DNA of 62,139 nt, filler included, from Sphacelaria rigidula (taxonomy: Eukaryota): NCBI GenBank assembly GCA_964200075.2. It is 10 parts of 10 records of this genome, joined end to end, with 100 filler letters (N's around TTAATTAATTAA, not from the genome) between each part and the next. Parts side by side here need not be neighbours in the genome. Positions count along the whole stretch, not along the records: positions 18,673 to 24,796 come from CAXNAA020022081.1; positions 24,897 to 31,020 come from CAXNAA020022082.1; 8 more parts are not named here. The stretch is one strand, 5' to 3'. The position numbers and the translations under genes are program-made. Positions 1-56,376 of the stretch are shown here, one piece after another. Below the pieces are notes generated by a model that saw only the letters and a program-made list of their open reading frames with translations, was not told the origin of the DNA and made no database searches. How positions within the stretch are numbered: the stretch's first letter is position 1; every line of letters begins with the position of its first letter.

Positions 1-92
1 TTGTCGAGATGCGAGGTCAACGGTCTGATGACTGTGGCATGCATGATCATGAGTACACCCCCCCCCTCCGCCCTATCAACAAATGAGTACGC
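1..92 (+). mobile_element. 3' tips of poly(C)-ended retroelement (subfamily A at 1-66, subfamily B tip at ~77-92)
   Basis: GATGCGAGGTCAACGGTCTGATGACTGTGGCATGCATGATCATGAGTACACCCCC, then CAACAAATGAGTACGCCC; both match many other copies in the window. Confidence 0.8.
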
Positions 93-559
93 CCTCCCCC
101 CCTTCCCCCTATCGTAGGATGACTCATCTTATCTCACGGTTTCACACCAGGGCAAGGGCCTAACACCGTCACGCTCACCCCCGAGAACAGCATAATCATG
201 TCCATAGGGCATGCAGTGCAGTCAGGCGTGGTGCGTGCAGCAGTGCCGGGATTTTGTGCACACCGAACTAATTCCATGTAACAAAAGAGCTGCCTGTGCT
301 GATTTTCGGGGGCACCTGTCTTCCGAATCGAAAATGGAAGCTCGCAACACACTGTGAGAAACAAGCCGTGCAAATCCCGAGAACAAAGAGAGGGAAAGGC
401 ATGCATGAAACCGGCAAAACCCATGCCAAAACGACCCTGCTTGGCCCAGTTTAGAGGGAGCTTCACACTACAGTACTGGGTACGGTACTCGTGTCATGGC
501 GCTACCATGAGCCCGACGACAGTGCAATGACACCCTAGCACCCCTGCCCGTCAGTGAGG

Positions 560-3500: not shown

Positions 3501-3690
3501 ACAGGTCCAACAAACATGCAATCGGTAAAGTTGCGTAAAATGTAATGATTGCGACGTGTCAAATTATCAACGAAATGGTCAGCTTTGCCGAGTACATGAA
3601 TGCATATCATCAGATGCTGCCGGCAGGGGGGAAAAGGGGCCGACCCTCCCGTTATTGAACATACACCCCTTGCCCCCTTCAAGGGTTGGC
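560..3690 (-). pseudogene. Highly decayed multi-exon coding remnant of unknown family (possibly transposon-derived)
   Basis: Protein-like minus-strand stretches broken by stops, e.g. MLDPPPPRDWDEAPAELAERV followed by GTAAGT, an acidic D-run ORF at 1930-2220, and EIHVASFVPILVNNQGGLWIG. No family recognised. Confidence 0.3.
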
Positions 3691-3805
3691 GTCGGTTTGG
3701 AACGACGCTGTATAATACGTGACCTACTGCGTAAGAAAGGCATCCAGGTTATCGTGTTTTTTGCTCGCTTGGGACATATTTCCTGTGTCCATGATGGTGG
3801 TCCGG

Positions 3806-3945
3806 TTAGGTCATATTGTGCGGGGTGAGAGAGCATATGAGGGGATGACCCTACTTCTTAACCTCTAAGTAGTGAGACACCCATGAGGCAGTGGATTAGC
3901 CGTGGCTGTTTCTGGAGGTGGTGATGCCAGAAAATGAAGCAACCA
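3806..3945 (+). repeat. Interspersed repeat family C (SINE/LINE-like 3' end with (CAT)n tail); other copies at 31431-31545, 36687-36863, 49593-49681, 52186-52215
   Basis: Shared TCATATTGTGCGG...GAGACACCCATGAGGCAGTG...CCGTGGCTGTCTCTGGAAGTG; the longest copy ends GGCTGTCATCATCAT. Confidence 0.8.
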
Positions 3946-4002
3946 TGGGAGCTGTGATCCATATACAAAATAATCAGCACGCGTCAGGTCGAACAATCTT
4001 AT

Positions 4003-4173
4003 CAGGGTGCAGATCACCCCTCATGCGACTCGCCGATGACATCATGGCACTTCGGGCGTGGTGATTTCGAGCCTTGTCCGGCGAAAACCCGGCGTGCGTC
4101 GTCTCGACTTTGTAGGGATGTGACGTCAACGGACTTATGACTACGGCATGCAAGATCACGAGCAAATCCCCCC
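4003..4173 (+). mobile_element. Poly(C)-ended retroelement, subfamily A; other copies or tips at 5091-5141(+), 24234-24270(+), 24585-24627(+), 31178-31222(+), 35769-35841(-), 36988-37035(-), 41829-42000(-), 43287-43388(+), 49460-49586(+), 56017-56133(+)
   Basis: Consensus CGAGCCTGGTCCGGCGARAACCCGGCGTGCTCCGTCCCGGCTT.GTAGGGATGCG.GGTCAATGGTCT.ATGACTA.GGCATGCA.GATCATGAGTACACCCCC; common 3' end, variable 5' truncation. Confidence 0.85.
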
Positions 4174-5140
4174 TTGCCCGCGCTTCGTGTGAGTGAGTTG
4201 AGTTTCAAGGGAGAACTTGAGCACGTTCACCCATATTTCGACGACGCAGCTTCAAATTTGTGTCATCCCCACCCCAATGCCCTGCCATTGGAGGGAAGCA
4301 TGGACGAGTTCTAGGCGGGTGCGTGGGGCGCTAGTCCGCACTTCCAAGATCTGCCCTGATTTTTCTCCCGCAGCCTAAACCATGACCCTAACCCTACCCG
4401 CAGAAGTGAGGGTGATTCTCAGATGCGGATGTTGGGGGTAGTCGCCTCATCACGGAGCTCTTGCTCCGCTTTCGCTGCTGCTGAGCGTCCTTGTGCACAC
4501 ATGAGGTTGCACTGTGCGTCCATGTACACCAACGTATGATAAAGGAGCGGTCGAATTCCATCCGCTTTTAGGGTGAACACGTCTACGTTTCCGGCATGTT
4601 CTTCGTAGGTGACAACACACATCGAACTGACAGAAACGTTTCCGTAATTACGGTGGCCATTACCTTCTGGCGATAGCAGACTCAGGACTGCTTTTTATCC
4701 GTAATTCTACGTTTTTTTTGCCGTGTTCGTTCACACCGGCCGTTTATGCCCGACATCATTGAAGCTCGTATGGTATCGACTATCGCACACTGATGTTTTG
4801 ACTACCGCTTTCCTCTCAACGAGTCAAGAAACACGTAATGTCGAGATGATCACTTCGAGAACCAAAACTATTCAGTTACCACTACGGTGGTCGCTACAAC
4901 CAATGAGTGTAAGCTGTCAAAATATCATCCAATTGAGATCAACCACCCAAATATTACAGTAGTGGGCGCCTGCATTAGATATTGCTCAGAAGGGTTGTTT
5001 CTCCCGACTACTCTTCGGTAGAACTCGAAAGTGCTAGCGTCAGTAGATTTTGGTGAAATAAACAGATCGTCTCCTCCCCCAGTGCCCAGAGGTCTTGGTC
5101 TTATGACTATGGCATGCATGATCATAAGTACCCCACCCCC

Positions 5141-16100: not shown

Positions 16101-18531
16101 CGTGTGGCAAGATTTGGAGTGGTCGCTTTTGAAGGTCTGCGATTGATCCATCCCAACGGCTGCGTACCAGCGGTTCACACATTGTGATGACACCATCGTA
16201 TGTGGAATCCTACTACGAAAGGGGGGTGGGGGTTGATGGCATGACAGAACAGTCTCATGTTTGTGACTGACGACCTGCAACACTCGCGGTGCGCTTGTAT
16301 TCGACTTAAAGCGGTGTATATGGATGTGTGCATGTGCGTTGATCAGAAATGATGAGGTCAATAATCTAAAAACCGTTGCTGCTGTTGAGCACGGTTCGAC
16401 TTTTGTTTTTGTGAAGCAGGAAGACGCCCAAGAACCCCCCTCCCCCCCTTCTCTATCGTAAGATGACTCTTTCCATCTGGATCACATTGACGTAAAACAC
16501 ACCTTTCGAGATTGTGTTTACGTCCCCGTTCCTTGAGGCTCTCATGACTCATCGCCGTCGTTGTCATCGTTGGCTCGGGGACGTCTGCCCTGCCGTTGCG
16601 GTCGCCGAATCTCGTGCCCCTTCTCATGCACAGGGACGAACGCCTCCAATTTCATTTCTGATCTTCGAACGATGTCCGGTATACTCTCCACATCTTCCGC
16701 AGACTGTCGATGACGAGAGCAGTCGAAGAAGCGCCGTTGACGTTTGTCGCATTCTCCGCATGATCCCATTATACATGCGTTCAGGTGTGCTGTGACCTCC
16801 CTCCCTCCCGTGGTCTTGTACAGCTTCACCTTCTCACAGAGGAGCTTGTCGCAGAGCTCTCCCATGCTGTGGACGTCTTTAACGCTCATGGTTGGCAGAA
16901 AACTCTACATCCGCCGTTGGCGTAAAGGTCACACCGGCATGTGCATGGCGACCCAGCAGTCTCGCTGCAGTGAAGTCGTGGCCACATTCGCGCGAGCGAT
17001 CACATGATCAGCTTACCCTTGTAGCAATGTGGGCACAGGCAGCATCTCGCAGTCTGTTTGACTACATTGAATGGCATCAACTCCGCGAAGGTAGATCTTG
17101 ATATGTGACCAGTCTCTACTTTTCCCTCCCGGAACTATGTGGTCATCGCGGAGGCGGCAGCGCGGGACAGTAACAGATGTTTTACATGAGGTCCACGGTG
17201 GGAGGGTTGGTCTAACACGGTATGACACTCCTTCCACGCGGGTTAGCATGTGATGGACTCGCATGTCGGGTGTCACATGCTGCTGCATCAACTCTGTTAC
17301 ACTTTGTTACGTAAACTCGTCCATGCGTTGTGGACATAGGGCGTCCTATCCTCGTTCACTAGTGGAGTGTCGACACTAAGCTGCATTCTCATACGCTCCG
17401 GAGCGAACAACGACGTCATATTTGATATCGGGCGGTGACGTCGAATGTTACAAGTATGCTGCACTGTATATGTTCTACGTGATCAATATGTCGAGCTTAC
17501 CGCCTTTTGTAGGGAATTGTTAACTTTCTCGTGTAGGTCCGTCTCGGAGCCCAGCAGAAACCGCACACCCAACGTAGGGCATCTGTCGGGTTGGAGGCAT
17601 TGGAGGCACCGGTCTACAGGGGGTCGGCGATGCCGTCCTGCACTGAAGTCGTGTTTCGTCTTCGTGTCACAGGGAGATGGTTGCGTGTTATCGTCGATGA
17701 CGTCGGCTATCATCGCTGTTGCCTTGGGAGTCTGGATGTCGAAGCAGTCACAACGTCTGCGCCGTTTCCCCGTCCTGTCGCGAATGAAGGGGGTCTTTTG
17801 AGAAGGTCTATATACGATTGACAGTGAGAGGAACAATGTCATTGGCATGATACCGAAATACAGCCGATTTATCTATTGACGAACGCGTACATGTCATGGG
17901 TGGCTGTCGCTTGCTATTGTGGTGTCGACCCCTTTCCACACACTCGCCACTGTTTCCGTACGCGATATCGGATGGCGCTAGTGTATATATTTCGTACTTG
18001 CACTTACAATTCAGCGGCGTCTCCGGCAGTCAGTGCTCGTTTTCTTCTGGTTAAACAATCTCCCATAAAAGGTTTCTGTAGTGACCCGATTGCTTGGGTG
18101 AGGGCTTCGTGTGATACTCCACTCGCCGATATTGCTGCGCCGAGTACTCGACGAGCACGTGACCCTGCCTTCGAGGCTACAATGGCGGGAGTAGATAGCC
18201 ATTGGTTCATCTCCTTGATGACCTCGACGATCGCCACCATATCTTCATTTGATGGCCCATCGGCATGGACTACACCCTTCTTGCGAAATTGTTTAAAGTA
18301 TCTGTGGTCGATGAGCATCTTGATAACCCTATCTCGGATGGCATCATCCTCCTCTGATTCGCCATCCTCACTCCTTTCACGTAGGGTCGTTACGGCGTTG
18401 TCGATAGGTTCGAAGATTTTTCGCTGTATAGCATCGGATCTAGAATGTCTCCGTGTTGGTGCGGCTGATGACGCAGGCTTTATACTGCATATATCTCTCA
18501 TCCTACGATAGGGGGGGGTATTTTGGGCCAT
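13159..18531 (-). mobile_element. Decayed intron-containing Sola2-like DDD transposase gene
   Basis: Exons approx. 18531-18004, 17800-17520, 17130-16503, 15511-14744, 14506-14280, 13999-13159; the last four join in phase via GT-AG. Motifs: ISRSTFAELMPFNV..CLC, LLC..CIMGSCGEC, ADFQERY..QDEVQSQHW..TLFP, SDD..QD, DNCGKQYK, YFAACHSKSVSDSEGGVVK, SCGCHRC. In-frame stops (13546, 16542, ~16520) and a frameshift near 16905. The Sola2 assignment is from recalled motif patterns. Confidence 0.8.
14744..15511 (-). pseudogene. Catalytic-core exon of the Sola2-like transposase
   Basis: Stop-free exon with acceptor AATCAG at 15512 and donor GTGAGT at 14743; contains the three acidic motifs (ADFQE, DNCGKQYK, SVSDSEGG). 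Confidence 0.85.
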
Positions 18532-20785
18532 TTGTTGCTCGAAATTTCGAGTCAGATCGTCGTTGAAAGCAGNNNNNNNNNNNNNNNNNNNNNNNNNNNN
18601 NNNNNNNNNNNNNNNNTTAATTAATTAANNNNNNNNNNNNNNNNNNNNNNNNNNNNNNNNNNNNNNNNNNNNCAAATGAGCATCGATCCGTATTGGGCAC
18701 ACTCTGGATGATGTTATTCTACGCGGTACCTATCTTGGTATCGCCTGTAGAGGTAATCACTTCAGGAGGCACGGTCTTGCAAGCACTGTCAGTGCTTTAC
18801 TCGCAAGTCATATCATGTACATGTATCATTTCACATTTTTCACTGCTTTTGCCGAGTTTTCTCTACCGGCAAGGCATTTTTTCCCATGCCTTCTTTTGCA
18901 GTGCACTGAAAAGGCTCAGTGGTACCTTACCGTTCAGGTTTGGGCGTCATCTGATACCTGTGGCGCGTGTTCCAGCCACCGAAAGCCGCTCAACCTGGCC
19001 CTTTTTGCGGGGTGTCGATCCCGAACCACAAAAGCCTCTTCAAGATCGTGGAAAGCTTGACAAAATCTATTTTCGAAGTGCGTCACCCCCGGGAGGCCCG
19101 TACCAACCTTCCGGAGGTGAACCCTGTATATAGTATTTCTTCGTTATAAACTATTCATGATAAAACTAATACATTAATACTCAGTAACAACAACTGGCAC
19201 GGTTGTCTGCAACATAGGAGTTACGTGCCGATTCGTACATTCCGCTGTTCGTTTCGCTCGAAAAAGCTGAGCTTTCCTGTTTTTGATCATGCCCGTCGCG
19301 CGCAACTAATTATTCAATGGACTCGAAGCGATCTGAGAATACGAATGCCGTGGACGTATCTGATACGGCCTCGTAGCGACCAATTCGATTCGACCGCATG
19401 TTTTCGAGTCGAATTGTTTTCGATAAGACGCGGCCTGATTGAAATCTGATGCCACGGCATCGATTTGTTTCATACTGCTCCACAAGTCAGTCATTCGCTC
19501 GAAGAGAGAGGTAGCAGGTACTTGTGATGTCGACGTAATATGTCTTCCTCTTTACGTCCCCTCATATAATGCGTTGCCGTGTCACCACTTTGTTTGTTGA
19601 TGCCACATAACATGTGCAGTGATGCCGAGTTGGCGGCTCGCCGGGTTCACAATAACGCGGACCGCCGGGTGTAGTGGTAGTAGTATATCTGCTACATCAC
19701 TTCGAGGTGTCGTGGGTATGTCCTACATCATGTTCAGAACGCTCTCCATGCAATTGGCAATTGGGGTTTGGTGTTCGGCACTTCCGCATCAAGCATCCCA
19801 CCATAACTAAGTCACAGTTCTTCATTTCTGCGTTTTACTCATTCGACTGACCAACTGTCGACCGACCCGCTGTCGTCGATAGATGAAAACTGCAGAACAA
19901 CTAGATACCAACGAAGTTTGTGGTACCCGTGCTGCTGTAGACCGCAAACTTTAATCGTACAGTCTAATTATATAAAGTGTTTCTTTGTTACAAAATCCAC
20001 ATAATAAAACTTATATGAAAATACTAGGTAATGACAAGCGGTACACCACCTCCAGATGAACTGGGCAACAGGTGCTCTCGTAACCATTTCCAGTTTAATT
20101 CCAGTTACAATAAAGATATACAGTATAAACTTGAATAGTTCCCAGCCCATTTAATGCATGTGTTCGCTGGACTTCCCGCAGGAGTTGACATCCAACACAC
20201 ATTGGGAACGGGGCGCTAGAAGGGGATCTCCCACCTTCTTTGTGTCAACACAATACAGCACACTCCTATATGCTGTACTCGCTTGCATAGAATGCCACAG
20301 TTACTGACAGGTCGGTGGTTATACCACTGTAAGGTCATCGAGGAGTAACCTGATTACCGAAATCAATCTATTATCCCACTTTCTTCCTTTCCACGTACTT
20401 GACATCGTTGCTTTCAACACCCGTTCGTCACTCATTCGCTAATAGTACAACTATGGTTCCTCCCGTACTTTCCTCGCTAAACTTCCCGCAACCACCCCTT
20501 TGCCCTTCTCCCGCTTCGTTCAACATCGGCAGGTGCTTCGTGTGCACTATCCATGAGTCTGTATCCCAAGAGACGAAACCAGTCCCGAAGGGCACCAGGA
20601 AATAGGTCCCTTCCTCTGCCTTGCATGTGGCGTGGACATCGGGGTCAGCACTCCGTACCACCGAGCTCCTGTCGGATTTCCAACTGCACTTGTTGCAGGA
20701 GAAAGAGGCGTTTACCTCGAGAAAAGACAACTCCACACCTCGGAAAGTACCACGAGTCAATACTTATTCCCCCTCCTCCCGGAGG

Positions 20786-20975
20786 AGGACGGGGATAAGA
20801 TATGTAAGAGGTTCTTGTGTAATGTATGGAAGAAACGTAATGAGCTACGGAAGGAACGTAATGAGTGCCCAAATGTTAGAGGTGCCTGTCTTGAGAGTAA
20901 GAAGGGTGCTTCGTCTCGAAGGGGGTGCGTGGTCAATAGTCAAACGACTAGGGCAGGGAACAGATGGGTACGCCC
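20786..20975 (+). mobile_element. Poly(C)-ended non-LTR retroelement, subfamily B (3' end of an ORF2-like frame); other copies at 24273-24375(-), 24376-24573(+), 24632-24760(+), ~26515-26537(-), 31227-31420(+), 33087-33158(+), 33590-33765(+), 37055-37162(-), 37188-37244(-), 42080-42159(-), 43398-43468(+)
   Basis: Pooled copies translate as SFDALDSREKTMAILGDRWWPQTAKQDGDKICKRFLCNVWKKRNERPNVGGVSIRSRNGAPSRKGCVVNGQTTKASNK-stop. The TGA is followed directly by GTACG and poly(C). Common 3' end, variable 5' truncation. Confidence 0.85.
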
Positions 20976-23900: not shown

Positions 23901-25999
23901 AGGTCAGCGGTAATTTTGCGGTCGATGTCTGATCGGCAACCTATCCTTTCGTAGGCAGACTGGATGTGTGGGGGGGTTATCCTCGCTCTGGATGGGCACG
24001 TCTGCATTATAGCGCCGCCTGTGCAATGAGAATCTACCAAAGGCTTCTGGTTCCCGGTCAGCAGACAGGCCTTCTCTACGGTGTACAACAAAGGTAGTAG
24101 AAGAGGCAGCAGCAGCATCAGTAGTAGTCGCCTTCGCAGCTGTAGTAGTTGTCTTTGCTGCTGTTTCTGTTACTTTTGCAGTTGTTTTTGCGGTTTCTAC
24201 TGCTGTTGCTTTTCGCCCCCCCCCCCTCCCCCTACTATAGCATGCAAGATCACGAGTACATCCCCCACCCCAACTCCTAATAGAGACACCTTCAACATTT
24301 CGGTGATCATTACGTATCTTCCATACATTACACAAAAGCGTTCTATATATCTTATCCACGTCCTGTTTCGCCGTCAGATGGTGGCCACAGACGGCGAAAC
24401 AGGACGGCGATAAGATATGTAAAACGTTTTTGTGTAATGTATGGAAGATACGTAATGATCACCGAAATGTTGGAAGTGCCTCTATTTGGAGTAGAAACGG
24501 TGCTACATCTTGAAAAGGATGTGTGGTCAACGATCAAGCGACTAAGCTAAGCAACAAATGAGAACGCCCCCCCTACTCCCATTAGTCTTACAGCTACGGC
24601 ATACATGATCATGAGTACACCCCCCACCCTCACGGAAGAAAAGTAATGAGCGCCAGAATGTTGAAGTTGTCTCTATGAGGAGTAGGAACGGTGCTCCGTC
24701 TCGAAAGGGATTCATGGTCAATGGTCAGACGACTAAGGCAAGCAACAAATGAATACGCCCGCCCCCCCCCCCCCCCCCGCCGCCCCCCCCCCCGAANNNN
24801 NNNNNNNNNNNNNNNNNNNNNNNNNNNNNNNNNNNNNNNNTTAATTAATTAANNNNNNNNNNNNNNNNNNNNNNNNNNNNNNNNNNNNNNNNNNNNCCCC
24901 CAGAACTTTTTTGAACATTTTCACCCCTTCATTTTTTTTTCTTTTCTCCCCCCCCCCCCCCCCCCCCCCCTCCCCTCTCCCTCCCTCATCCTCAGCGCAC
25001 ATCCGTGGTCCTGAGCGATCAACCCGCCTCTCTTCCCTCGTTACTAGCCTTGTACTCTGTTTTCAAGCATTGGACCATGACCATCATCACTATAGTAGTC
25101 TCCAGCTGATTTAGGGGTTTCTTTGCGTTTTTTTCTCCGTCGGCGATCTCCAATAGTTCTCTCGCGCGCAGCCGCTCATCCCAGTGAACGCTTGTTCTCA
25201 AAGTGTTGGGGTCGGGAGACACGGGGAATCCGGTCCACATTCCGAAACAAAAAATAATATTTTCGCTTCATATTAAGCGACTTACGGGCTGAATTGACAG
25301 GGAGTGCTACTGACCATTTTTGGTCCAAACACGTTTATTTTTGGCCCTAGCGCAATGAATGGGCGGAAATAGAAAATAACCGTCTGTAAAATTATTCACG
25401 AGAGCGATCAGGATTGGTTCACCCCCCCCCTGTGCTATGCAGAGCTTGGTCGGGCAATTATCGGAGTCGGATACTTCTCTGAATTTTCTCGTACAGTCCT
25501 TAGCACTCGAAAGTCCTAGCATCAATAGATATGGGGGAAAGAAGCAGGTCGTGCCCAGGGCACAATCCTCTGTTGCTGTTGTCACGTTGATATGAAGTAA
25601 GTACCTCGTTTATTTTGGGGTGTGATCGACCGTAACTGGTAAAAAAAACACAGTTTTTCGGCTCTACCGCAATGAATAGATGGAAATTGAACAAAACACA
25701 CATGTACATTTGTTCACAGAATGATAGGATTGCTTAAGTCGAGAAAAAATGCCCCAAGGGTCAAAACCTGGGACTGGGTTGTCGCAGCCCCCCCCGCCAA
25801 ACCGGTCAGCCCGTGAGCCCTTCGATATTGAGTGCAGAGATGATTTTGTTTCGGAACGTGGAGCGGATGCCTAGTATCTCTCGATCCCCAAACTTTGGGA
25901 TCAAACGTTCCCTGGGATGAGCGGTGCACACAAAAATACTATCGAAAATCGCCGACTACGAATAAGGTACAAAAATCCCCTGATTCAGCTGGGAACTAG

Positions 26000-26169: not shown

Positions 26170-27316
26170 ATGTCTACGTCATCTGGTGTGCAGTTTTGTT
26201 GTACCGTTCGCCATTCCATGTAACAGTTTGTGTACAGCGCTGTGGTCGACCGAGGCTCGACTTCCCTCGATACACATGGCAGGTGTGATCTGCTTCTTTC
26301 CGCTCAACATACCTTTGGGATACTTTTGTCAGTGCTTGTCGGCGCAAGAAAGTTTTCTTCAGCGCAGGTAGCATATGCCATACGTTCTACGTCACCCGTA
26401 CGCACCACAGTATACCACCTGCCGCCTCCCCTCGTTATTAACACTCTTGGATAATACCATTTGGGGGGGGGGTGCTCATGAACCTCTTGGGGGGAAGGGA
26501 GAGAGGGAGGAAGGGGAGGCGTACTCATTTGTTGCGGGCGGGTGGGGTGGGGGGGGCAGGGTTGGCATCATAGTAGTGCTTGCACTGCTTAGAAATATGC
26601 TTGACATAAGTGCAAACAGAAACACGTATGATAGCTTGAACATGACATCATGAAATCATCTTGAACTCGGCTCATCCTTTTCTTTGCAATGTGTACAGGG
26701 TGTTAAATACATCCCCTTGTAGGCAACTATTACGCAACAACGCATGTTTTTTAGCAATAAATATTTTCACCTTTGTTTTCACCCTTCACGGGAGGAGGGA
26801 GAGGGGGGCAGGGGGTATTGCGGAAGCAATAATGTATACATGCACAGAAAATGACGTACAATCTACGAAAATTCACATTGCCATAAGGTGGATGTATACA
26901 TGAACGAGCCCGTTCAAACGGACGGGAAGCAGTCGGGCGATGTAATGGGCCAAAAAACGGTCAGTCTCAAAAAGATCTAAATAGCTTGCAGTCCGGTGGT
27001 CCGATGATACTGAACCACGTGTCACATGGTAAACTACGCCTTACATGTGGTGTAATAAAAACCTTAGATTGCGGTGTACATCACCCCTCCGTGAGAACGT
27101 TTTTTTGGGATCTCAAAACTCATCACCCGGGAATACTTTTGGGGGGAGGGGTTAGAAGGTGACATAACATGTGCCCTAGTACAGCCTGTCCCCACCCCTC
27201 CCATCCGAAAAGAAGAACGAAGAAAATAGCATCCAGTCGTGTAATAACTAGCTGGATACAATGTTACTTTTTCTTCCGTCAACGTTTGTCGGATCGGCGG
27301 CGGAATTGAAAAATAG

Positions 27317-27968: not shown

Positions 27969-28159
27969 GTGGGGAGCAGGAGGAAGGGGATGGTCAGAGG
28001 GCGTAGGGGGGGGGGGGGGGGCAAGCATGGGAAATTTTCGTTGGGTTGGTTTTCTCACCCAGAAGGGGCCCCCAAAAAACAGCCCGGGGTNNNNNNNNNN
28101 GAGAAAGAGGGAAGGGAAGAGGGGGGGAAAAAAAAAGAGGGGCGCGGAGGCGGGGGGCG

Positions 28160-28219
<60 letters not shown>

Positions 28220-29165
28220 CTAGCATGTGAAATGTTCGATTGGTTGGTTATCTCACTCAGATGGGTCCGCCAAAAATCCAGCCGTGGTCATCAGATAGAT
28301 ACAGGGGAAGGGTTATGATGTACTTGAACAGGTGGTTCATTTTTTACTGTGACATTGATTGAACCCCCCAAAACGAGTCCAGCTATGACCACCAGATGTT
28401 TGTGAGGGGAACGAGGAAGGCGTACGGATGAAGTAAAATTGACATTACCCAGGTAATGTGTGACGATGTCGTATTGCCAGTAAGGTTCACCTACAGGTAT
28501 TGTTATTTTCCACACGGTTTTACCTGATATATATGTATATATATACAGGTCATGCTACTATGGACGAGCGTAGTTGATTGGTTTGTGTGTACCGTATGAC
28601 TCGTGAGCGTACACCATTCATTGACGACACGCCGCGTCAAGGGGACGGAGGGAGCGTGTCCCATGAAACACACGGTTGATTCTTGTCTTTCCTAAGATGC
28701 TTACATATTCTCTTATCGCATATACCCTCCGTACTGGTACTCGGAATCCGACACCTTTTGGTAGATAGGTATTGGCCAAGATAAACCGTCGTCCGTGACC
28801 CGCCTTTCTCTTTGTAGTCATTTTTGAAAAGTAAAAATCGGTGGCCCAATCGTGTGCGTGCGTGCGTGCGTGCGTGTGTGTGTGTGTGTTTCCAGCTTCC
28901 AACCTCGATCATTAGGACGCTACTCACGCGAATCGCTTCCGTGGTCTCCGCTGTGATACAGTGTTGTACCCCCTGTCGTGTGTAAACATTGCACACTCCG
29001 GACAAAATGAAGTTGATCGTTGCAATAGAAGAGATTGTACCGCGTAGAGCACAGGCCTATTGCAACTATTGACCGCATATTGTCATTATCCAGGGTGTGT
29101 ACATTGACCTGATCACGGGTGAGAGTGAGGGGGAAATAGGTGGGCATGGCCTGTGTGCCGACCCC

Positions 29166-30573: not shown

Positions 30574-32484
30574 ATTGTTATTTTAATTGTTGTTGTGTGC
30601 TGTACACCCAGTGTCGTGCGTTCTGTTCATCCTTTTACTGTTTTTTCAAGGGAGAATGGGGACGGGGGAGAGAGAAGAGCTATCGCACACAGCATAATTT
30701 CACAAGAGACAGCAGCCTACATGGGGCGCACTTGTGACGGTGACGATCTGTCCCAGGGATGCATGCTCCACTTCGGATGCTGTCACCCCCCTCCCCTCAA
30801 GAACGCATTGTCAATGACTTCAACAGCTGTAAGGCATGCTAACTAACCATAAACGCGCATTGACCCTTGCTTATTGAGCTCTTCCTGCGCCTCATGTCGG
30901 TTTCAGGCGCATACGGAGTAAGGCGCTACCAACCCCACCCCGCCGCCGCCGCCTCGTCTGAGTTTACACCTCCCCCCCTCCCCCCCTTTTTTTTTTTTTT
31001 TTTTCTTTTTTCTCCCCTTTNNNNNNNNNNNNNNNNNNNNNNNNNNNNNNNNNNNNNNNNNNNNTTAATTAATTAANNNNNNNNNNNNNNNNNNNNNNNN
31101 NNNNNNNNNNNNNNNNNNNNTGGTCACACAAACAAAGAAAGCAAAAAAAGAGTACCCCCCCCCCCCCCCCCCCCATAATGGTCTTGATGACTATGGTATG
31201 CATGATCATGAGTACACCCCCCCGCCATGGGGCACAGACGGCGAAATAGGACGGGGATAAGATATGTAAAATATTTTGTGTAATGTATGGAAGAAACGTA
31301 ATGAGCGCCGGAATGTTAAAGTGGCTCTATTGGGAGTAGGAACGGTGGTCCGTCTCGAAAGGGGTGCGTGGTCACTGGTCAAAAGACGAAGGCGAGCAAG
31401 AAATGAGTACGCCCCCCCCCCATGCTGTTGGTCGAGCTAGATCATATTGTGCGGCGTGGGAGAATCTCAATTCCGCGAGGATAATCATACTACGTAGTCT
31501 TGGAATGGTTAGACACCCATGAGGCAGTGTGTCAACCCATGGCTGGATCCCTGGGGGGTTGGTTAAAGTGCGACAATCAATCAATATCAGTATTCTCAGT
31601 ATTCTCACAATTCCCATTATTCCCATGATTCCCATTACTCACCCTCATCCTCATTATTATCACTACTAAATCATTATCAATATTATTCATATTATAAGAA
31701 TAACTCACAGTAACCCTAACCCCCACCCTAACGAAGGCATACCAAGAACCCTCGGGCAGGGGGGGTGCAACATGTCCCCTAGGCAAAGTGTGCGTTGCGA
31801 GACCTCTAGACACCGATTTAGACGAAAACGCGATCTGCGCACGCTATAATAGAAGCACAGCCCCCAATAAAAATCCGGATTTCGATGTCCTCACTAAAAC
31901 CAAGTCGGAAAGTTCCATGCCTACCAAGCTGTAAAATATGCTGTTCCCATCTGCCTGCACCTATCTGCATACATAATATACTTCTGCACGAAAAACGAGA
32001 TATGAAAGCCAGATCTCGGAAGCTCTCGTCCCTCGGAATAATTCTCTCGACCAGATGAGACCTAACCCACCACCTGATTCATGTCCAACGGTATAATCGC
32101 CGCAGTTTTTCTGACCTTTTCTTTTCCCCTCTCCAGTAGATTTTCAATAGAAGGGGGAAAAAATCCAAGGGTCTACATGTGACACTAGCTACGTACACGT
32201 TTCACGTCAAAAGTCGTCAAAAGTGAAGTCAGGGCTCCCCATGTGGTCCCCGTCCCTCACCGTAATACCTACCAGCCTGTCATGAAACGTGATACGACGT
32301 GACACGTAACGAGTGTAACGTGTAGACCCTTGAAAAAAAAGGGCACCCCGCCGAGCGTTTTCTCCATTGACACGGCAGAGCACGTTGCCTACAAGTAGAT
32401 CTTGCTTTTTTACGGTAAATATAATAGTATTTATTTATTACGGCCAAGAATTGATTGCTCCAACCGCTGCCTTGTGCCGCGCAG

Positions 32485-32603: not shown

Positions 32604-34651
32604 GTGAGTTCTGTACTTGTATACCGCCGTCTGTCGGCACGAATCCTTTGAAAAAATGATTACTAATGCGCACCCTGCACAACTAGGCTCGTTCGTATTA
32701 TGCTAGCACGGTTTTTGAAGAATTCATTTATCTTGAAAATAGTGCTGGGTCGCTATTTTGTAAAACCGTGGTATTATAGCATAATAAGTAGAAAGCCTAT
32801 GCACAACACGATAGACAGCATTGGCAACTGTGTACTGTTGTGTACAGTATGCAATGTGTTCGCCTCTTGCAATAAACATTGGCAAGTGCGTACTGTATAC
32901 AGTATACAATATATTCGCCTCTTGCAATAGACGAGAGATTCGATACTCTAGGCAGTACATTCTCCCCCCCAAAAGTAATCTTTCGTTGTTGTCCCGAGGT
33001 GTGAAATAATGCTATGTGATGGTCATATCGGAACATTTTGAACTACATTTTCGAAGTAAGGGTGTATCCCCCCCCTACCCCCCTCCTGCTCCGTCTCGAA
33101 AGGGATGCGTGGTCAATGGTCAAACGACTAAGGCAAGCAACAAATGAGTACGCCCCCCACCCCCCTCCCTCCTCGCCATATTTTTTTCACGAAAAGTGTC
33201 AAAAATCGAGTGGACAGCAAAGATAATGAGAGGAAACATGAGGTCAGTACAGTGGAGAACATTAAGTATACTTCCTCCTGCGTACTCGAGTTTTTGCTCA
33301 TCACATTAGCCCTTGCTCAAAAATCAAGCACCCGTGGTCGCAAAGCCGTGGTATAAATACAGAAAGGAAGGAGAAACAACATGCGCACGAAAATGGTGTT
33401 TTTTATTATTTCGGCACTGGGCCAATCATGTGTACATTGTGGTCATGAGTGTGTCTGGGTTCATTGTATTAGGGTCGTATATGGGTGCCGAAAACGAGAT
33501 CATGGTGATACTGAAAGCAATTATCTGTGGTTGCGCCTTTGGGTACCGGACGAGAGCCTTGGCCCGAGCTAACCCCCCTTCCCCGAAATGCGAAACAGGA
33601 CGGGCATAAGATATGTAAAAGGTTTCTGTGTAGTGTATGGAAGAAATGTATTGAGCACCTAAATGTTGGAGATGTCTCTATTAGGAGTAGGAACAGTGCT
33701 CCGTCTCGAAATGGATGCGTGGTCAATGGTCAGACGACTAAGGCAAGCAACAGATGGGTACTCCCACCCCCCACCCCCCCCCTCCTTATCGATTGTTAGT
33801 ATTTTCTTTGGGCGATAGTCTTGCAGTATCCCCTGATTTGTGTGTTTGTACCTGGTGTACTGTCCGCAATCCTTGGGCTTGATCACTTCTGCAGTCTCTT
33901 TCTTCTCCGTTCTCTCTTTCTTCTCCGTTCTCTCTTTCCCCCCATCTCTCCATACGTGTGTTATTTCCTCCCGGTGTATGCAAGCTGGTGAGGGATCTCG
34001 CTTGAAGCACCGCCGGAGGAAGACAAAAAATATGCGATTTGGTTTCATTTCCCTTGACAAGTCAGGTCCGCCCGGGTGCTCGAGAATCCGTCGTGCAGAA
34101 ACCACGCCAAATATGTTTTCAAAAACGAATATGGAAAGAACGACGAGGCCTGTAGCCTCTACCAGACGATCTCTCACGAGCCAGACAGCAAGGGGCCATC
34201 AATCCAGGAATCCCTGTCTCCTGGCACTGCTCCAAATCATGCATGCGATTATACTGAAACCAACGGCTTGGTATCATTTGGCTACAGGCCAAGAAGCAAT
34301 TCAGCATTGTAAAAAGCCTCGATCATCATCAGCGCACGCACATGAGAATGGAGACACATGGACACAGTACTGAACACAAATAACAACATGCAAACAACGC
34401 TCCGGCGGAAGGTGATTGGGCGTACGGCCGGACTAATCAAATTATGCGCGATTCCGGGTAATAAGTTGTCCCGCGGTGTCTGATATACAAGGCACTACTC
34501 CGTTGGGTGGGGTACGGTACGGGGGGAAAAGAAACATACGATCCGAAGCCCAACGCGGTAGGTACATACAGGCGACGCAACAAACATGTGTTAACCGTGA
34601 GGTTGAAGACATCGACGCCGGTGAGAACCTGGAGAAGTTTTTGTTCCTCAA

Positions 34652-35472: not shown

Positions 35473-36059
35473 GTACTACGATACGGTGTATCATGACTTG
35501 TGCAATTTTTCAGAAGCACGATAAAGTTCCAGGCTTCTTTCCCAAGGGGTGGTATTCAACGTATGTGTATTGCGCTGAGTGACACCCGTTACTACTCATC
35601 ATCAGTGCTCAAAATGAAGGCTGTGCTTCCTCGAAATAATGGTTCCGGTGGAGGCTCATTTCTCATGCTCTGGTTGTTGGTTGTTGGTTCTGGGACCACA
35701 GATGTGGTGTGGAGCACACGTGATCGCTCTCGTCAAGTGCTCTCTCTCTCTCTCTTGCGGGGGGATAAGGTGTATTCATGACCTTGCATGCCGTAGTCAT
35801 GTAAACATTGACGTCGCATCCCTTCGAGGCCGGGACGGAGCTCTCGGGGGGGAGGGGGGGAGGGGGCGGGGGTGAATGGCATCAGCTGCTTCAAGCAAAA
35901 TCTGTCTGATCATGTTGGAAACCTGTCGTGGATGCTGTGTGCAGGGATGTGGGGTTGGTGGAGGAAACCTCCGGGAACTTGAGTATCGTACTATTTTAGC
36001 CGCAATGGTTGTAATCGTGTTTTCATCATTGCGGTTAGATGACGGCACGCAACTTGAAA

Positions 36060-36480: not shown

Positions 36481-37719
36481 ACTGAATTAATTACAGGTCC
36501 TTGTAATCCGTTCATTCGCTGGTGGATTTCGAACTGTCAAACACCCCCCCTCCCCCCTCCTTCCTATCAGTTCGGAATCGACTGGTAATGACGCTGTTGA
36601 ACACGCCACTCACGGCGTATGCTAGGCAACCACGTTACCGATTTTTTCTCCGTGCTTACATTTTCTTTGCGGTAGACATGATGGTAGTCGAGCTAGATCA
36701 TATTGTGCGGGGTGGGAAAACCTCAACTCCGCACAGTGGAGATGATCGTATTACGTAGTGTTGAAATGGTGAGACACTCATGAGGCAGTGTATAAGCCGT
36801 GGCTGTCTCTGGAAGTGCTGATACCACGAAATAAAGCAACACATTGTTGGCTGTCATCATCATGATTACCGCAAAGAAAAACGCAAGCGTGCGAAAAAAA
36901 TCGGGAACCTGGTCGCCTAGCTTACGCAGTAAGTGGCATGTTTTTATAGCGTCGTTGCCAACCGACGCCAACCCCATCGGGGGTCCGCCCCTACGAAGCC
37001 GGGACGGAGCACGCCGGGTTCTCGCCGGACCAGGCGGCGGGGGGGGAGGGATGACGTACCCATTTGTTGCTTGCCTTGGTCGTTTGACCATTGACCAAGC
37101 ATCCCTTTCGAGACGAAGCACCGTTTCTACTCCTAATAGAGACACCTCCAGCATTCCGGCGCTGGGGTAAGGGGGGAGGAGGGGGGGCGCGTACTCATTT
37201 GTCGCTTGCCTTCGTCGTTTGACCATTGATCACGCACCCCTTTCNNNNNNNNNNNNNNNNNNNNNNNNNNNNNNNNNNNNNNNNNNNNTTAATTAATTAA
37301 NNNNNNNNNNNNNNNNNNNNNNNNNNNNNNNNNNNNNNNNNNNNTGTATAGGAAGTGATGTAACGTAGGTGAAGAGAGGGACGGCGGGGTGAGTGGGGGC
37401 GGGGGGGGGGGGGGGGGGGGGGGGAGAGAGGTCGTTTTGGACCAAATTGTTGAAGCAAGAAGCCGTATTTGAACGTTTCTGTGGGCCTTCAAGAGTCGCA
37501 CTGGGGCCGTTTCCGATCGTTGCCGAAGGCCGTAACGCGTTCTCATAAGTAATCATCTTCAAGTCAATATTCAGCGATATTTGGGTCGGTAGCCTGACGA
37601 ACACTTCATCTTACAACAGTGCGCACGTATAGCAGCGTGTCGTTGTGCATCACTGCCATGAACCTCACGGCTCGGCGATAAGACTCAGAATACTCCGCTC
37701 TCATCTTTTCTTCCCCAGT

Positions 37720-41180: not shown

Positions 41181-43568
41181 CAATGAAGTGATCAACCATG
41201 CCTGTACCACTTACACGTCGCAACGGGGCGCACGCTTTTGATGATCCCGCATTCGCATCGGGGGACGGCACAGGATAGTGAAGGGAAAACAACGGAAACA
41301 TCAATTACACTTGCATAAAAAACATCAGTTCGACATCGTCAACCGCAAGCCCAGAGGTCTCCTGCCCCAAAAGGGTGAGGTGGACATTTTCTTCTCCTGG
41401 GACGGCAATATCCTGCTGGTTGTGGCTCATGTACGAATGATCATGACGCAAAGTAAAGGCACGGCGAAGATACTTTTTACGCAGGCCTTCTTGATCCTAC
41501 ACAAACAATCATTCCGAACTCCCCGAGAAGTATGTGCGTTCATCAGCGTCCAACTGAAAATTTGAGCGCTGTTTGAGTTCGGTTCCCATCGGTTGTGTCC
41601 GTGATGCTACGTCAAGAGGTTGTTCAATCCGTCATCATGACGACAGTGCACACACTTACGACAACAAGAAGCTGCACTTCCAACTGGCAAGAAAAAAATA
41701 ACCAAAAGCAAAGACATCATCATGCCGTCCGTTATCCGTCACTACTTGTGTAGCGATGGTCTGAAGAAGACAAACATTTTTTTCGTACTTTTTTCGCGTC
41801 AAAGAAACAGGTCAAGGCAGGGGGGGGGGGGTGCTCATGATCTTGCATGCCATAAGTATGTGACCATTCACCTCGCATCTCTACAAAGCCAGGGCGGAGC
41901 ACGCCGGGTTTTCGCCGGACCGGGCTCGCAATCAATCACCAAGAGCGAAGCGCCGTGGTGTGTTTGCCGAGTCGCATGGAGGGTGAGCTGCATCCTGCTA
42001 CAGTAAGAATGTTCGCCCCGAAGTTTACTTACTATCTTGCACTTGTGCATCCTAGGCAGGGGATGCGGGAGGGGGGGAAACTCACTTGCTACTTGCCTCA
42101 GTAACGTGACCGTTGACCACGCATCCCTCTCAAGACGGAGCACCGTTTCTGCTCCTAATGAAGTGGGGAAGGGCTGTGTGTGTGTGTAGGGGGGGGGGGG
42201 GGGGGGTTCTGCCAGCTTGGAATGACTGCAATACTCAAGAGAGACGATTCCAGCGCACCGCTTTGTCACGCAATTCCTTGCACGCAGTCATGGCTTCGTG
42301 CCGAAGGAGGAATGGTTCCCCCTTTGGGAACTAAAGTGCTGACTTTGTTTCGAGAATCTTCTTGACTCGGCATAATTTTGACTTGAAAAGAGTGGCTGAA
42401 AATGATTTCGATTGAAAGAGATTCACAAAACAAAAGTCAGCACTTACTGGGGATCTAGTTCCCAACGGGTTCACACAAACCTCCAATTCTCGCGAGCTGT
42501 TCCATGTTGTTTACTCTTGTTCTCTCGCAAGCTCGAAGTATCTCTGAACTTGGTCGAAAGCCAAACTATACATACCGAGTGCACGAAAGCCCGGTAAATT
42601 TGCGCCGAAATCATCTCATAAGAGACAAGTAAGCCAAGCACCCCGACAGCGGCCGAAAACCCGCCCACACATGTTGAACCCCCCGCAATCTGATGAGGAT
42701 CCGTCACGTCAAAATGGGCATCGTCTCGGAAAGTCTTTCTTCCCCTTCTTCCTCTTCTTCGAGGCGTATAATACATGACATGTCCACACACGGAGAGGAG
42801 GGGGTACATGTGCTTCATATGGATGACATTGAACCTTCGCCTTGACAAGGAGGACGGACGAGATCGGGGATGTGTAGGAAAATACGGAGATCTACGTCAA
42901 TCCGACCCATGTCGCAAGAAAGAGGCTGTTGCGCTGAGAGGTGCCCAGAGGAGAGCCGCCACCACTCGCAAATGGTCAGCGGCAACATCCTGCGAGGAAT
43001 CCAAGATGAAAAAAGTCCGGAGACTGCTCCACTTCACCACTGACTATCCACTTCACTATTGACTGTTACAGGGATGAGCGGGACAGGCAGGCGTCGCACG
43101 GAATATGAGATACCCCTGTCTCCGCCCATCGGTTACTGATGCTTTTCGTGTTCTTGCAACTTCTAGCGATGTCCCCTAGCTTCGCTTCCTCTTCAAATTT
43201 CAGCTTCGCCTTCGGGTTTCTCATATTTTGCCCACTTCGCTTGTCTTACTTCCTCCTTCATCTCCTTCCCCCCTCCACCCCCACCTCGAGCCTGGTCCGG
43301 CGAAAACCCGGCATGCTCCGTCTCCACTCCGTGAGGATGCGACGTCAGTGGTTCTAGGACTACGGCATGCAAGATCATGAGTACGCCCTGCCCCCCCTCG
43401 TTTGATGCACTAGACAGTAGGGAGAAAACGATGGCTATACTAGGGGATAGATGGTGGCCAGAGACGGCNNNNNNNNNNNNNNNNNNNNNNNNNNNNNNNN
43501 NNNNNNNNNNNNTTAATTAATTAANNNNNNNNNNNNNNNNNNNNNNNNNNNNNNNNNNNNNNNNNNNN

Positions 43569-47366: not shown

Positions 47367-50300
47367 GAAACAAGCACTGGAACTACCCCCTCTGCTTTGC
47401 GTTATAGTGTAACAGGGCAACAACTTGAACTTTGCTTCACTGGAGAGCTAGGCATCTTCCAGATTCTCGTAGGTGGGGCACATCCCTAAACGATTGCGCC
47501 CATTTACTCTAGAAAATCACAGTGAATAACTTCTCCTAATTCAAATATTCGCCGTGTGGAGAGGACGGTCACAGTGTTTCGGGGGTTCCACAACTTCCTT
47601 TTTTTAGCTATTTTCACGATTGAGGTTTGCCCCTGTTCGCCGGGCGGCTAACTAGCTGACCCGGTTCAACGGAGAGAGATCACTCTCAACCCTGAGCCGT
47701 CTGAGTGTGCTCCATGCTACATCCACGAGCCTAGATTCTGCAGATCTTATCAAGCACGAGCAAAGCTCTCACGGTGGCCACCCTTTCGCGGGACCATAGG
47801 GTTCTCCTATGGCTTCCGGCAGTTTTTTATTTAGATACTCGCGAGATTTGGCGGTCACCGACCGGGTATAAGCTTCATTGCAGAACATGCAGACCTGTCG
47901 GGTATTGGTATCGAAGTCTCACAGAACTTACGGAATATGTCTGGTGCGGTGCGGAGGTCGTATAGAAACCCTTACCCGCAACCGGGTATTTCTACAAGAG
48001 CATACTCGTACCCCGGGCAAAAAGGTAAATATTTCGCACAGATCTCACAGAACTGTCGGGTACCGGTCTGAGATGCTCACGAGAGTCACAGCTCAGTCGG
48101 GTACGGGTAATACCCGGGCAAATACCCCGGGTATACATAAAATCGTACCCGGCACAATCTTGAAATCAACAGCTGGCCATCACCTCGTCTTGCAGGAAAT
48201 TAGCAGGAGCCAGTGCTCGCAAGGCCACAAGCATATAGGAAAAAATGAACACGTGAAATGGCCGGTAAAATCTCAGCAGTAGGAAGGCAAGCAGCTCATC
48301 GTTGCGAGATAGGTGCTATTTTGGGCTCGACCCCGAGACAACATCAACTTTAGCAGTCGACCGTACAGGTCTGTAATGAGCAAACTTGCAAGTCGGCATG
48401 CTGCAGTCGTGTACACTGGTTTGGAGTAATTTTCAGCAGGAATTTGCTCCGTGCCAGAAGCACACGTGAACTGCCGTGGCTCCTGAAATGCTGCACAGCA
48501 TGTCGTCAAATCAGGAGTGGCGTCAGCAGGTGGGCAAGGGCGAGCAATGAGGGCTACTGCACGAGGGCTGGGGATTTCTGTTCTCATCGCATGCTTCCCG
48601 TGCACGTCATGTCTAACAGCTTTTATGTATGTGTTGTTTTTTCGCTTCGTCTCAGCACCCATCAAACAATACTCACTGTCACTAAAAGTAACAAAGCACG
48701 GTGAGCATGTCTTGCCTTCGTCGGTTAGGTCCAAAGCTCGTAACGTCTGGGTAGCGTCTGGGTAGCCAGGCACATTTCGCAAACATGCTCAGTCGCTGGT
48801 GATGAAACAAAGCGTCCCGCCAAAGCTGGTGTAGGTCAACACCGCCTCTTGGTTGCGGAGCATTCGATTTTCGCGACGTTAACTTTGCACCTGCGTTTCA
48901 TATGTGTGCTCATTCACCCCGATCAAACACACATTCAACCGTACCAAGTTGCCTCACTCGCGAAAACGGAGTAGGGGGGAAGTCACGTCACAAACCTCGA
49001 GTTTTTGGCGCCTTCATGCTGATCCGAAGAAGAAATATGCTACGGCGCATTTCTAACATCCCCAGCTACAAGACGGTACCATTATTTTTCCACGCCCTGG
49101 ACAATAACTTTTATTGTAAAAAAATGTACTGCGTACAGTATGGAATATATTGTCTATTGCAATAGGCGCAATAGTCGATACTGTACACACTACACTTTGT
49201 TTACTGTGTTTTCCATTTCCAGGGGGTGTATTTTTCACCTTCGGTAAGAGATTTGGCACATGTATCAGGACAGGCACCACAGGCGCTCTTGTCACCCTCT
49301 CTTTTTGGCGTCCAAGTTTTTTTTGGCGTATTGGCCAAAAACCATGAAGGCAGTGTGAAAGGTCTCTGCAAGAGATCAGCTGCAGGAGAGATATCCAACG
49401 TGCCTGAACAACTGTTGAAAAGTCTCGCAGGTCAGAGTCTCCCCCCGTTTCCCCGTTTGCGCGTGGTTATCGATTGCGAGCCTGGTCCGGCGAAATCCCG
49501 GCGTGCTCCGTCCCGGCTTTGTAGGGATGCGCGGTCAATGGTCTGATGACTACGGCATACAAGATCATGAGTACATTCCCCCCCCCCTCTGCTTAGACAC
49601 CCATGAGGCAGTGTAAAAACCGTGGCTGTCTCTGGAAGTGGCGATACCACAGGATAGAGCAACTCGTTGTTGGCTGTCATCCATATGCAAGANNNNNNNN
49701 NNNNNNNNNNNNNNNNNNNNNNNNNNNNNNNNNNNNTTAATTAATTAANNNNNNNNNNNNNNNNNNNNNNNNNNNNNNNNNNNNNNNNNNNNCCCCCCCC
49801 TATCGTAGGATGACTCTATGGCCAACACTATTCTTTTTGTATCATGGCGCTTCTACAACCGAGACTATTGTGTCGTATCATATCATCTGCGCTAGTCACA
49901 CCTTCGGGTCGGTACCACGATGCAAAACGATGTTCGTAACAGCGGCTGAGAGATTCGATCCTTCATATGAAATAAGAAAAACACAGTGCAATCTAGCTTT
50001 CATCACTGTGCCAGATTGTTTTAGCAAGGACATAACTTGAACTTCAAGATGTAACAGCTCAGGTGGTGTTTATACTTCATAACGTACAGTCAACATGAAT
50101 ATCCATGTAGTCTGTACATATTATTGCATAACTGCGGGTCATTGAACCGGCCGCGCTGACTATATCGCTGACTTCATGCATGAGACGCCGACGAATCTGG
50201 CGATGTGGTCAGCCAACCTCCCTTTTTGTCATGACATACTACAAACCAAGGGAAGGAAAAGTAATGAAGAGTTCATACTGATGACATCGTGCTACCTGCT

Positions 50301-55912: not shown

Positions 55913-56376
55913 GTCGNNNNNNNNNNNNNNNNNNNNNNNNNNNNNNNNNNNNNNNNNNNNTTAATTAATTAANNNNNNNNNNNNNNNNNNNNNNNNNNNN
56001 NNNNNNNNNNNNNNNNCTTGGTGATTGAGTGCGAGCCTGGTCCGGCGAGAACCCGGCGTGCTCCGTCCCGGCTTCGTAGGGATGCGAGGTCAATGATCTT
56101 ATGACTATGGCATGCATGATCATGAGTACACCCTCATCCCCGTGTCTCCCCCCCTCCCCTTTCCCTTTCCCCTTCCCCCCTCCCACCGCGCGCGCTGGCC
56201 CCCGTTCATGACGTAGACCAACCCTACGTGGGCTTGCCCAATCTGCACACTCGTGAACGAAGGCTCTGTGGATACGTGCTGTGCCTGTGCAAATAGCATT
56301 GGAAAATACACCCGTCGAGGAGCTTGTGGCCTTGCATGACGCGTAACCGGTAGACACAGACTGAGGTTCCCTTTAG

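Follow-up and report, generated by a model that had tools for sequence, protein, structure and literature searches.

The stretch of DNA analyzed here, hereafter the window, is 62,139 nucleotides (nt) long and comes from Sphacelaria rigidula (GenBank assembly GCA_964200075.2). It is made up of ten pieces of 6124 bases each, which are from unrelated contigs and have N spacers between them, and its GC content is about 45-53%. Scattered over it are copies of two short repeat families, A and B, which end alike in a run of C's (C-run) and which we assign to a long interspersed nuclear element (LINE) and to a passenger of this LINE. BLAST searches of the window with the interval first noticed (24234-24796), the longest A copy, and an outside LINE, L003, together with reading of the sequence over the whole window, gave 29 copies, 13 of family B and 16 of family A. 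They are confined to pieces 1, 4, 5, 6, 7, 8, and 10, and thus the more than 20 copies in seven of the ten contigs that had been claimed in a preliminary description of this DNA are there. Three extra short tail-like bits in the window are uncertain and are outside the 29.

The two families have a common 3' terminus, ...ATGAGTAC(A/G) followed by a C-run, and the point of 5' truncation is variable. The end motif ATGAGTACRCCCC, with at most one mismatch, has 11 matches in the window as against a mean of 0.10 and a maximum of 2 in 100 shuffles. On L003, in the LINE sense, the B copies start at ten distinct positions, namely, 4913, 4962, 4969, 4980, about 4981, 5029, 5044, 5070, 5087, and 5138, and since all of them run to about 5159-5165 in every mapped copy, the 3' end of family B is fixed and its 5' end is variable, which is the signature of 5' truncation. 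The interval 24234-24796 had been described as a stack of five pieces; five pieces were found, but it had been overlooked that the second is inverted relative to the third, the sequence 24273-24492 being 88.7% self-complementary. The pieces of this stack and the other copies of family B are as follows.

24234..24258, + strand: A tail fragment, piece 1 of the five; C-rich run up to 24269
24270..24373, - strand: inverted B arm, L003 sense 4978-5081; hairpin-like 5' inversion with 24376..24566
24376..24566, + strand: B copy (LINE 3' end), L003 sense 4962-5159; C7 tail 24567-24573
24574..24620, + strand: A tail fragment that begins immediately past the C-run of the B tail
24634..24757, + strand: B copy, then C-rich run 24758-24796 closing the piece
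77..95, + strand: very short B copy of the last ~19 nt, on top of the tail left by A copy 1-57
20780..20974, + strand: B copy, 21 nt of which are duplicated internally; tail C-rich, up to 20984
26516..26535, - strand: very short B copy with a C-rich flank on each side
31230..31411, + strand: B copy on top of A tail 31177-31216; its C10 tail is 31412-31421
33087..33158, + strand: intronic B copy, last 72 nt; candidate duplication ACCCCCCTCC on each side
33590..33762, + strand: B copy in the same intron as 33087..33158; C-rich tail up to 33786
37052..37163, - strand: B copy stacked on the tail of 37190..37244
37190..37244, - strand: B copy cut by the piece end
42080..42159, - strand: B copy; C18 and (CA)n upstream
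43400..43468, + strand: B copy with the deepest reach into the frame (P0002 codons 1284-1306); stacked on the A tail at 43286-43385 and cut off where the piece ends

The remaining copies of family A are the following.

1..57, + strand: A tail with C9, cut off at the piece start
3683..4164, + strand: longest A copy, ~490 bp; candidate duplication CCCCTTGCCC on each side
5095..5132, + strand: A tail fragment
31177..31216, + strand: A tail fragment on top of a third variant of the tail (31121-31154 and C20)
31421..31545, + strand: A internal part that begins immediately past a B tail
35762..35849, - strand: A tail copy
36587..37035: scrambled cluster of three A pieces (36587-36858, + strand; 36884-36974, - strand; 36989-37035, - strand)
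41832..42039, - strand: A copy stacked on B 42080-42159; C12 tail
43286..43385, + strand: A copy
49461..49574, + strand: A copy; C10 tail
49595..49690, + strand: A internal part stacked on the tail of 49461..49574; cut by the piece end
56017..56130, + strand: A copy cut by the piece start

Within the stack, the divergence from L003 differs from piece to piece, the identity being 82.8% for 24376-24573 and 89.1% for 24634-24770. The intronic copy gave a 79-nt BLAST match (33087-33165) that is 97.5% identical to the L003 tail. In sequencing run X1 the depth in the bin with the tail was about 3.2 million compared to about 30 in unique bins, depth ratios not being copy numbers.

The LINE that ends in family B

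The window itself does not code for a reverse transcriptase (RT): comparison of its 215 stop-to-stop frames of at least 85 amino acids (aa) with Pfam gave two sub-threshold chance matches (RecR_ZnF and Mucin), and when P0002, a full-length protein relative of the element described below, was used in tblastn against the window only its last ~80 codons were matched. Outside the window, a pattern of 28 nt taken from the 5' portion of B matched at least one metagenome-contig locus, L001. On the minus strand of L001 there is a long frame with an RVT_1 match (P0001; E 3.4e-31) that passes directly into B and ends in ...ILGDRWWPQTAKQDGDKICRRFLCNVWKKRN...KASNK, TGA, GTACG, and C9. L003 is a 5259-nt contaminant contig that came from a scan of prokaryote genome contigs, and it has an intact open frame that codes for 1382 aa with endonuclease (EN) and RT domains (RVT_1 E 6.7e-32) and shows 88% identity to P0002. 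This frame ends as the frame in L001 does and is followed by GTACG and C13. The full-length protein relatives of the L001 frame are P0002 (1360 aa, 80% identical) and P0003 (1328 aa, 73% identical), with RVT_1 matches in Pfam at E 9.8e-31 and 1.7e-32, respectively. The domains are in the same order in these proteins as in L003, Exo_endo_phos and Exo_endo_phos_2 being at residues ~170-415 and the RT at ~740-1010, that is, an apurinic-type (APE-type) EN lies N-terminal to the RT. P0002 and P0003 end in ...KASNK and the Ectocarpus model P0004 ends in ...TTASNK. Among named proteins the best relative of the element comes from Ectocarpus; P0004 shares 66% identity with the L001 frame (461 aa) and 92% with P0003 (475 aa). 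The closest relatives of the element RT with a solved structure are L1 ORF2p and R2.

Since the RT frames of L001 and L003 continue into B and are followed by the stop, GTACG, and the C-run, B closes a LINE frame whose 3' untranslated region (UTR) measures 5 nt, and judged by its sequence family B represents the 3' end of a LINE, truncated on the 5' side. The preliminary description had taken the repeat for an element without long terminal repeats (LTRs) and B for the end of a reading frame with its stop 5 nt from the C-run. Both claims stand, because upstream of B both L001 and L003 carry a frame for EN and RT, because comparison of L003 with itself gave no terminal repeats, either LTRs or terminal inverted repeats, the one repeat seen being a short tandem one in its 5' flank, and because the ...LGDRWWPQ...KASNK-stop that had been read in the window is the C-terminus of the full-length proteins. 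Extension in the 5' direction to the second open reading frame (ORF2), with classification of its domains, had been suggested as a check and led to the 1382-aa EN-RT frame of L003.

The 1382-aa frame matched the EN and RT families only, RNase H not being among them, and ORF1 was not specifically searched for in the 1067-nt 5' region. These 1067 nt upstream of the frame have no match in the window, and the 5' end of the full-length LINE was not located. At ~4735-4795 of L003 (LINE sense), upstream of the frame, inspection by eye only showed a diverged stretch that resembles the 3' tail in antisense, and it could be an inverted old insertion or a part of the 5' UTR. A collection of viral contigs gave no matches to the element pattern, and in G001 there was one LINE contig only and the motif matches were at control level. 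A Penelope-like element was considered from the CTGATGA/GAAA strings and the inverted arm, and was rejected because the EN is APE-type instead of GIY-YIG and because Rfam gave no match to a ribozyme such as the hammerhead.

Family A and the tail shared with B

The consensus tails of A and B are identical in 38 of 48 columns, the common stretch being about 70 nt at the 3' end, and further upstream of the aligned tail the two families also share GTGCTCCGTC. The longest A copy (3683-4164) has no Pfam-bearing frame. In the head of A there is no tRNA, and no Rfam match was obtained at the gathering threshold for the window or at E up to 1 for 3640-4200. The earlier view of A as a partner that shares only the tail, with neither a coding part nor a known RNA as its head, is upheld by these results. 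Because A is non-coding and shares only the last ~70 nt with B, it is, as these comparisons indicate, a LINE-dependent non-autonomous element, a passenger. It was also compared with a classical short interspersed nuclear element (SINE), and it has the 3' end shared with the partner LINE but none of the heads with a pol III promoter, namely, tRNA, 5S, 7SL, or snRNA. At the start of piece 6 (31121-31174) there is a further tail variant, ...AAAGCAAAAAAAGAGTAC plus C20, on top of which an A copy is stacked.

When L001 and L003 were aligned, the last 75 columns were 97% identical compared to 80% overall in this pair, which is the highest of 28 windows and is equaled by 0.4% of sliding windows. The more distant proteins P0005-P0014 (~40% identity) keep a ...CVVNG...AMA-like peptide near the C-terminus, over the conserved DNA 3' tail. 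The last ~75 nt encode the C-terminus and, as the alignments suggest, probably also serve as the recognition site for the enzyme.

C-runs, stacking, and the proposed mechanism

A C-run of at least 4 within the 20 nt upstream was found at 21 of the 22 scorable 5' junctions as against 5.8% of 20,000 random positions (binomial p 2e-25). The count leaves out 7 of the 29 copies, of which 3 are cut by piece ends, 3 are in the A cluster 36587-37035, and one is the direct arm of the hairpin, which was pooled with the inverted arm. Half of the junctions (11 of 22) adjoin the tail of another copy and the other 11 have C-rich flanks with no recognizable element. At the other end of the copies, a C-rich run lies immediately past the motif in 16 of 16 aligned tails. 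Among the C-runs of 7 or more in the window, 22 of 50 have the end of an A or B copy no more than 25 nt away; the longest C-run is C59. Thus, of the earlier claim of C-run targeting and of stacking into tails, the preference is supported by the flank statistics (21 of 22 against 5.8%) but not proven. The tabulation of flanks, another check suggested at that stage, bore out the C-runs upstream; candidate target-site duplications (TSDs) were not distinguishable from the C-rich background (p 0.26).

The same pattern is seen outside the window. Contigs matching the 72-nt tail number in the hundreds in four runs (three studies) and show C-runs in their loose ends on both sides, and upstream of 33087 a C-run consensus was obtained from 313, 263, 297, and 54 contigs (X1, X3, X4, and X6, respectively) with an agreement of 0.43-0.47. 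Contigs from an independent study (X4, record 20) cover 33142-33619 with 2 differences. That the C-runs are artefacts of sequencing or assembly, such as homopolymer errors or poly-G read ends, on an ordinary repeat is hardly credible. Two pieces do start or finish in C-runs (24762-24796 and 49793-49800), but other runs lie inside the pieces between stretches of unique DNA, the runs are found again in contigs from three studies and in two assemblies from outside, and (C)n has been curated independently in the Ectocarpus transposable element library (Genome Biol 2025, PMC12477816, Supplementary Material 3).

Taking these findings together, we consider it very likely that B is a single-ORF LINE with an apurinic-type EN and an RT, of the RTE-X kind of Ectocarpus, that has a (C)n tail, and that A is a ~490-bp passenger copied by the LINE enzyme, and we propose that both insert by target-primed reverse transcription from a G-run with stacking in older tails. 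The EN would nick the bottom strand in or at a G-run, and the nicked G-run would pair with the C-tail of the RNA and prime reverse transcription, early stops being frequent. As a result of priming at a G-run a new copy would come to lie between C-rich flanks, and as each copy would deposit a fresh C-run, later copies could enter older tails and so build head-to-tail stacks such as that at 24234-24796. The logic would be that of the poly(A) tails of L1 and Alu with C replacing A. The candidate duplications ACCCCCCTCC (33087) and CCCCTTGCCC (3683) begin with C's, and a duplication beginning with C's would be expected from a bottom-strand nick in a G-run. The 5' inversion at 24270-24566 is what we take to be a typical by-product of target-primed reverse transcription.

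Stacks could also be laid down in single events in which the RT, having reached the 5' end of one RNA, moves on to the C-tail of a second RNA, either A or B. Enzymes of R2 and L1 are known to jump between templates end to end. The 11 of 22 junctions that are element-on-tail are what such jumping would give, and junction types recur, that from A tail to A internal (31223>31506) being present in 14-15 contigs in each of three runs. Template switching by the enzyme is evident in the A cluster 36587-37035 and in the hairpin 24270-24566. On the other hand, the difference in divergence between stacked pieces (82.8% versus 89.1%) fits different ages, although different source subfamilies are also possible, and jumping gives no explanation for the 11 of 22 junctions that have C-rich flanks with no element upstream. 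On this evidence single-event stacks seem rather unlikely to us.

Another explanation for the C-runs on both sides of the copies is that the elements have no tail, end at ...GTAC(A/G), and enter only long pre-existing (C)n, so that the two flanking C-runs are the split or duplicated target. There are long C- or G-runs that have no A or B copy, for example, C23 at 24948, C24 at 37401 (- strand), and C20 at 62073 (- strand), and the note on the Ectocarpus element RTEX-2 in the library reads '(C)n termini/TSD' (PMC12477816). Nevertheless, such elements are improbable because a C6 stands between GTACG and the candidate duplication ACCCCCCTCC at B 33087-33158, as it would if the tail were separate, because the C-rich run is directly past the motif in all 16 aligned tails, and because RTEX-1 is annotated as '(C)n 3'' in the same library (PMC12477816).

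Directly past some C-runs there is a motif of 13-16 nt, TATCGTAGGATGA, often followed by CTC, at these sites.

110-122: motif
16454-16466: motif
18498-18510, - strand: motif
49801-49813: motif
L001 ~84-99, - strand: motif with a 3-nt insertion

With at most two mismatches it has 6 matches versus 1.18 expected, a number that none of 100 shuffles reached, and in 3 cases there is a B-type tail upstream of it. The real 3' end might therefore be past the C-run, as ...GTACG-(C)n-TATCGTAGGATGA(CTC), with priming inside the C-run dropping the last 13-16 nt in most copies, or the motif might serve as a specific target or close a different mobile element. However, the motif is absent from L003, from most tails in the window, and from the loose-end consensus downstream of 33158, and the sequences diverge immediately past it. 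Moreover, 16454 and 18498 pair up in inverted orientation over a distance of 2031 nt, with 21-nt arms that are 81% identical, as the ends of a DNA transposon would. We therefore give an end past the C-run a low probability; the motif could be a 3' extension of the element, a preferred target, opposite-strand mini-copies with G-tails, or the termini of a DNA transposon that ends in C-runs.

An extension of the mechanism, possible and put forward tentatively, is that the last ~75 nt would be all at once the C-terminal peptide (...GCVVNGQ.TKASNK), a recognition tag copied by A, and the carrier of a C-tail primed by the G-run of the target. This would be homopolymer priming free of polyadenylation, and the LINE would be the main maker and user of long C- and G-runs in brown-algal genomes. 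If the tail has this triple role, then the motif past some C-runs could mark a second, sequence-specific step.

Several findings weigh against the proposed mechanism. As many as 28 of the 50 C-runs of 7 or more have no recognized A or B copy alongside. In a C-rich background the longest match between 5' and 3' flanks averaged 7.1 nt in 8 copies compared to 6.6 nt in 56 mismatched pairs (p 0.26), with a flank match of 10 nt in only 2 of the 8, and no empty site was seen, so that the pre-existing and the RNA-borne parts of the downstream C-runs are not separable. The high conservation of the tail comes from one sequence pair only, the tail RNA folds no better than shuffles (z -0.03, +0.88, -0.99, and -1.15), and the alignment fold of the tail is weak (-2.9 kcal/mol), its first stem being misaligned by MAFFT. 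Finally, the motif past some C-runs is not accounted for by the model, and the RTE-X label is borrowed from the Ectocarpus paper.

C-runs in the window also occur in other repeats. A paralogous pair of another repeat (32890-32961 and 49193-49123) was examined as a candidate empty site and yielded no more than a difference of C7 (32964-32970) versus T5, which is unrelated to A and B; therefore, C-runs also arise or decay through point changes. A third short repeat (...AACCAACC.A.CGAA.ATTTC.CATGCT.G), unlike A and B, is present at 28022-28085 (- strand) and 28220-28270 (- strand) with ends of C16 and C59, and it may be another C-tailed passenger. The intron with two B copies is a GT-AG intron of 2730 nt between 32603 and 35334, and the flanking exons 32485-32603 and 35334-35472, from a gene for a coiled-coil-like protein, are joined in a 2997-nt contig of X6, a run that is only guessed to be of RNA. 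Elsewhere in the window there is an open frame of 298 aa at 14627-15520 (- strand) with protein-like composition and no Pfam match, which is possibly a mobile-element protein, and a tandem array at 53341-53823 (period 41 bp, 11.7 copies, 75% matches). A 1.3-kb dispersed repeat is at 6745-8071 and 59624-60973 (77% identical), and further repeat pairs are 11403-11756 with 46953-47297 and 11033-11295 with 41183-40917.

Comparison with known elements

The novelty cautiously suggested in the preliminary description does not hold, an existing database entry being among its own grounds for refutation. Among the entries of the Ectocarpus library (Genome Biol 2025, PMC12477816, Supplementary Material 3), RTEX-1_Ec32 (5867 bp) is described as 'single EN-RT ORF; (C)n 3'' with TSD 'C-rich', and RTEX-2_Ec32, with '(C)n termini/TSD', falls with it in a size range of 5.5-5.9 kb. 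There is also a short partner, RTEX-N1_Ec32, a non-autonomous element of 607 bp with '5' head unknown', '60 bp 3' end 83% RTEX-1/RTEX-2', 'can be present in tandem', and TSD 'C-rich', and RTEX-N2_Ec32, of 188 bp, has a similar 3' tail. According to the main text RTEX-N1 is the most abundant single family, and in this text the C-tail is not discussed and neither 'C-rich' nor 'homopolymer' has a match (PMC12477816). The print record of a C-tailed LINE, as far as this source goes, is thus a curator's note in a supplementary table. In the literature searched, which did not extend to Repbase, Dfam, or most subscription journals, C-tailed LINEs are not described elsewhere. The label RTE-X was given in Ectocarpus from the best blastp matches, RTEX-4_NV and RTEX-1_BF (PMC12477816). 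In Repbase, RTEX is a clade alongside RTE.

The Sphacelaria element resembles the RTEX-1/2_Ec32 entries in its single EN-RT frame, here of 1360-1382 codons, in the stop 5 nt before the C-run, and in its C-rich flanks, and it differs from them in that the frame has about 66-73% protein identity to Ectocarpus-type copies. From the matching anatomy, P0004 would be RTEX-1 or RTEX-2, and the link of the Sphacelaria element to these entries, which runs through P0004, is indirect. Family A is like the RTEX-N1/N2_Ec32 entries in being short (~490 bp) and non-coding with a head of unassigned origin, in its LINE-like 3' end, and in its stacking, but the lengths differ (607 and 188 bp versus ~490 bp). 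The other LINE groups among these library entries, RTE ((CAA)n, 4.0-4.6 kb) and CRE ((CA)n, RT-EN order), are unlike the element in anatomy, which matches RTEX (PMC12477816). On these entries the C-tail and the C-rich habit are already recorded for the Ectocarpus relatives, and the Sphacelaria LINE itself is an additional member. In the window the elements and their tails account for 22 of the 50 C-runs of 7 or more, some copies are intronic, and there are C-runs at piece ends; knowing the family therefore helps in the annotation and assembly of brown-algal genomes.

LINEs of the RTE clade, as reportedly set out by Malik and Eickbush in 1998, have a very short 3' UTR and are the source of many SINEs. 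The element shares with them the one EN-RT frame, the near lack of a 3' UTR, and a SINE-like partner with a common 3' end, but their tails are short and A/T-rich or, in the Ectocarpus entries, (CAA)n, and not (C)n. Kojima and Fujiwara are said to have described the microsatellite-specific LINEs Waldo, Mino, Kibi, and Koshi, of the R1/Tx1 type. In these, as here, the repeat of the 3' tail is the same as the target; they belong to other clades, however, and their targets are di- to tetranucleotide repeats and not a homopolymer.

L1 and Alu have a poly(A) tail, a T-rich nick site, and a habit of insertion in older A-tails. The likeness to the system proposed here is in the pairing of a homopolymer tail at the nick, in duplications that start with the tail base, in a passenger that uses the tail, and in the pile-up in old tails. 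The difference is that the base here is C and that recognition here seems to require the last ~70 nt (the stringent type) whereas L1 requires mainly poly(A). Because the tail base is C and not A, the tail does not come from polyadenylation, and this raises the question how the RNA acquires a C-tail. At the same time, a LINE ending in poly(C) would show that the pairing of tail and target in target-primed reverse transcription is independent of poly(A).

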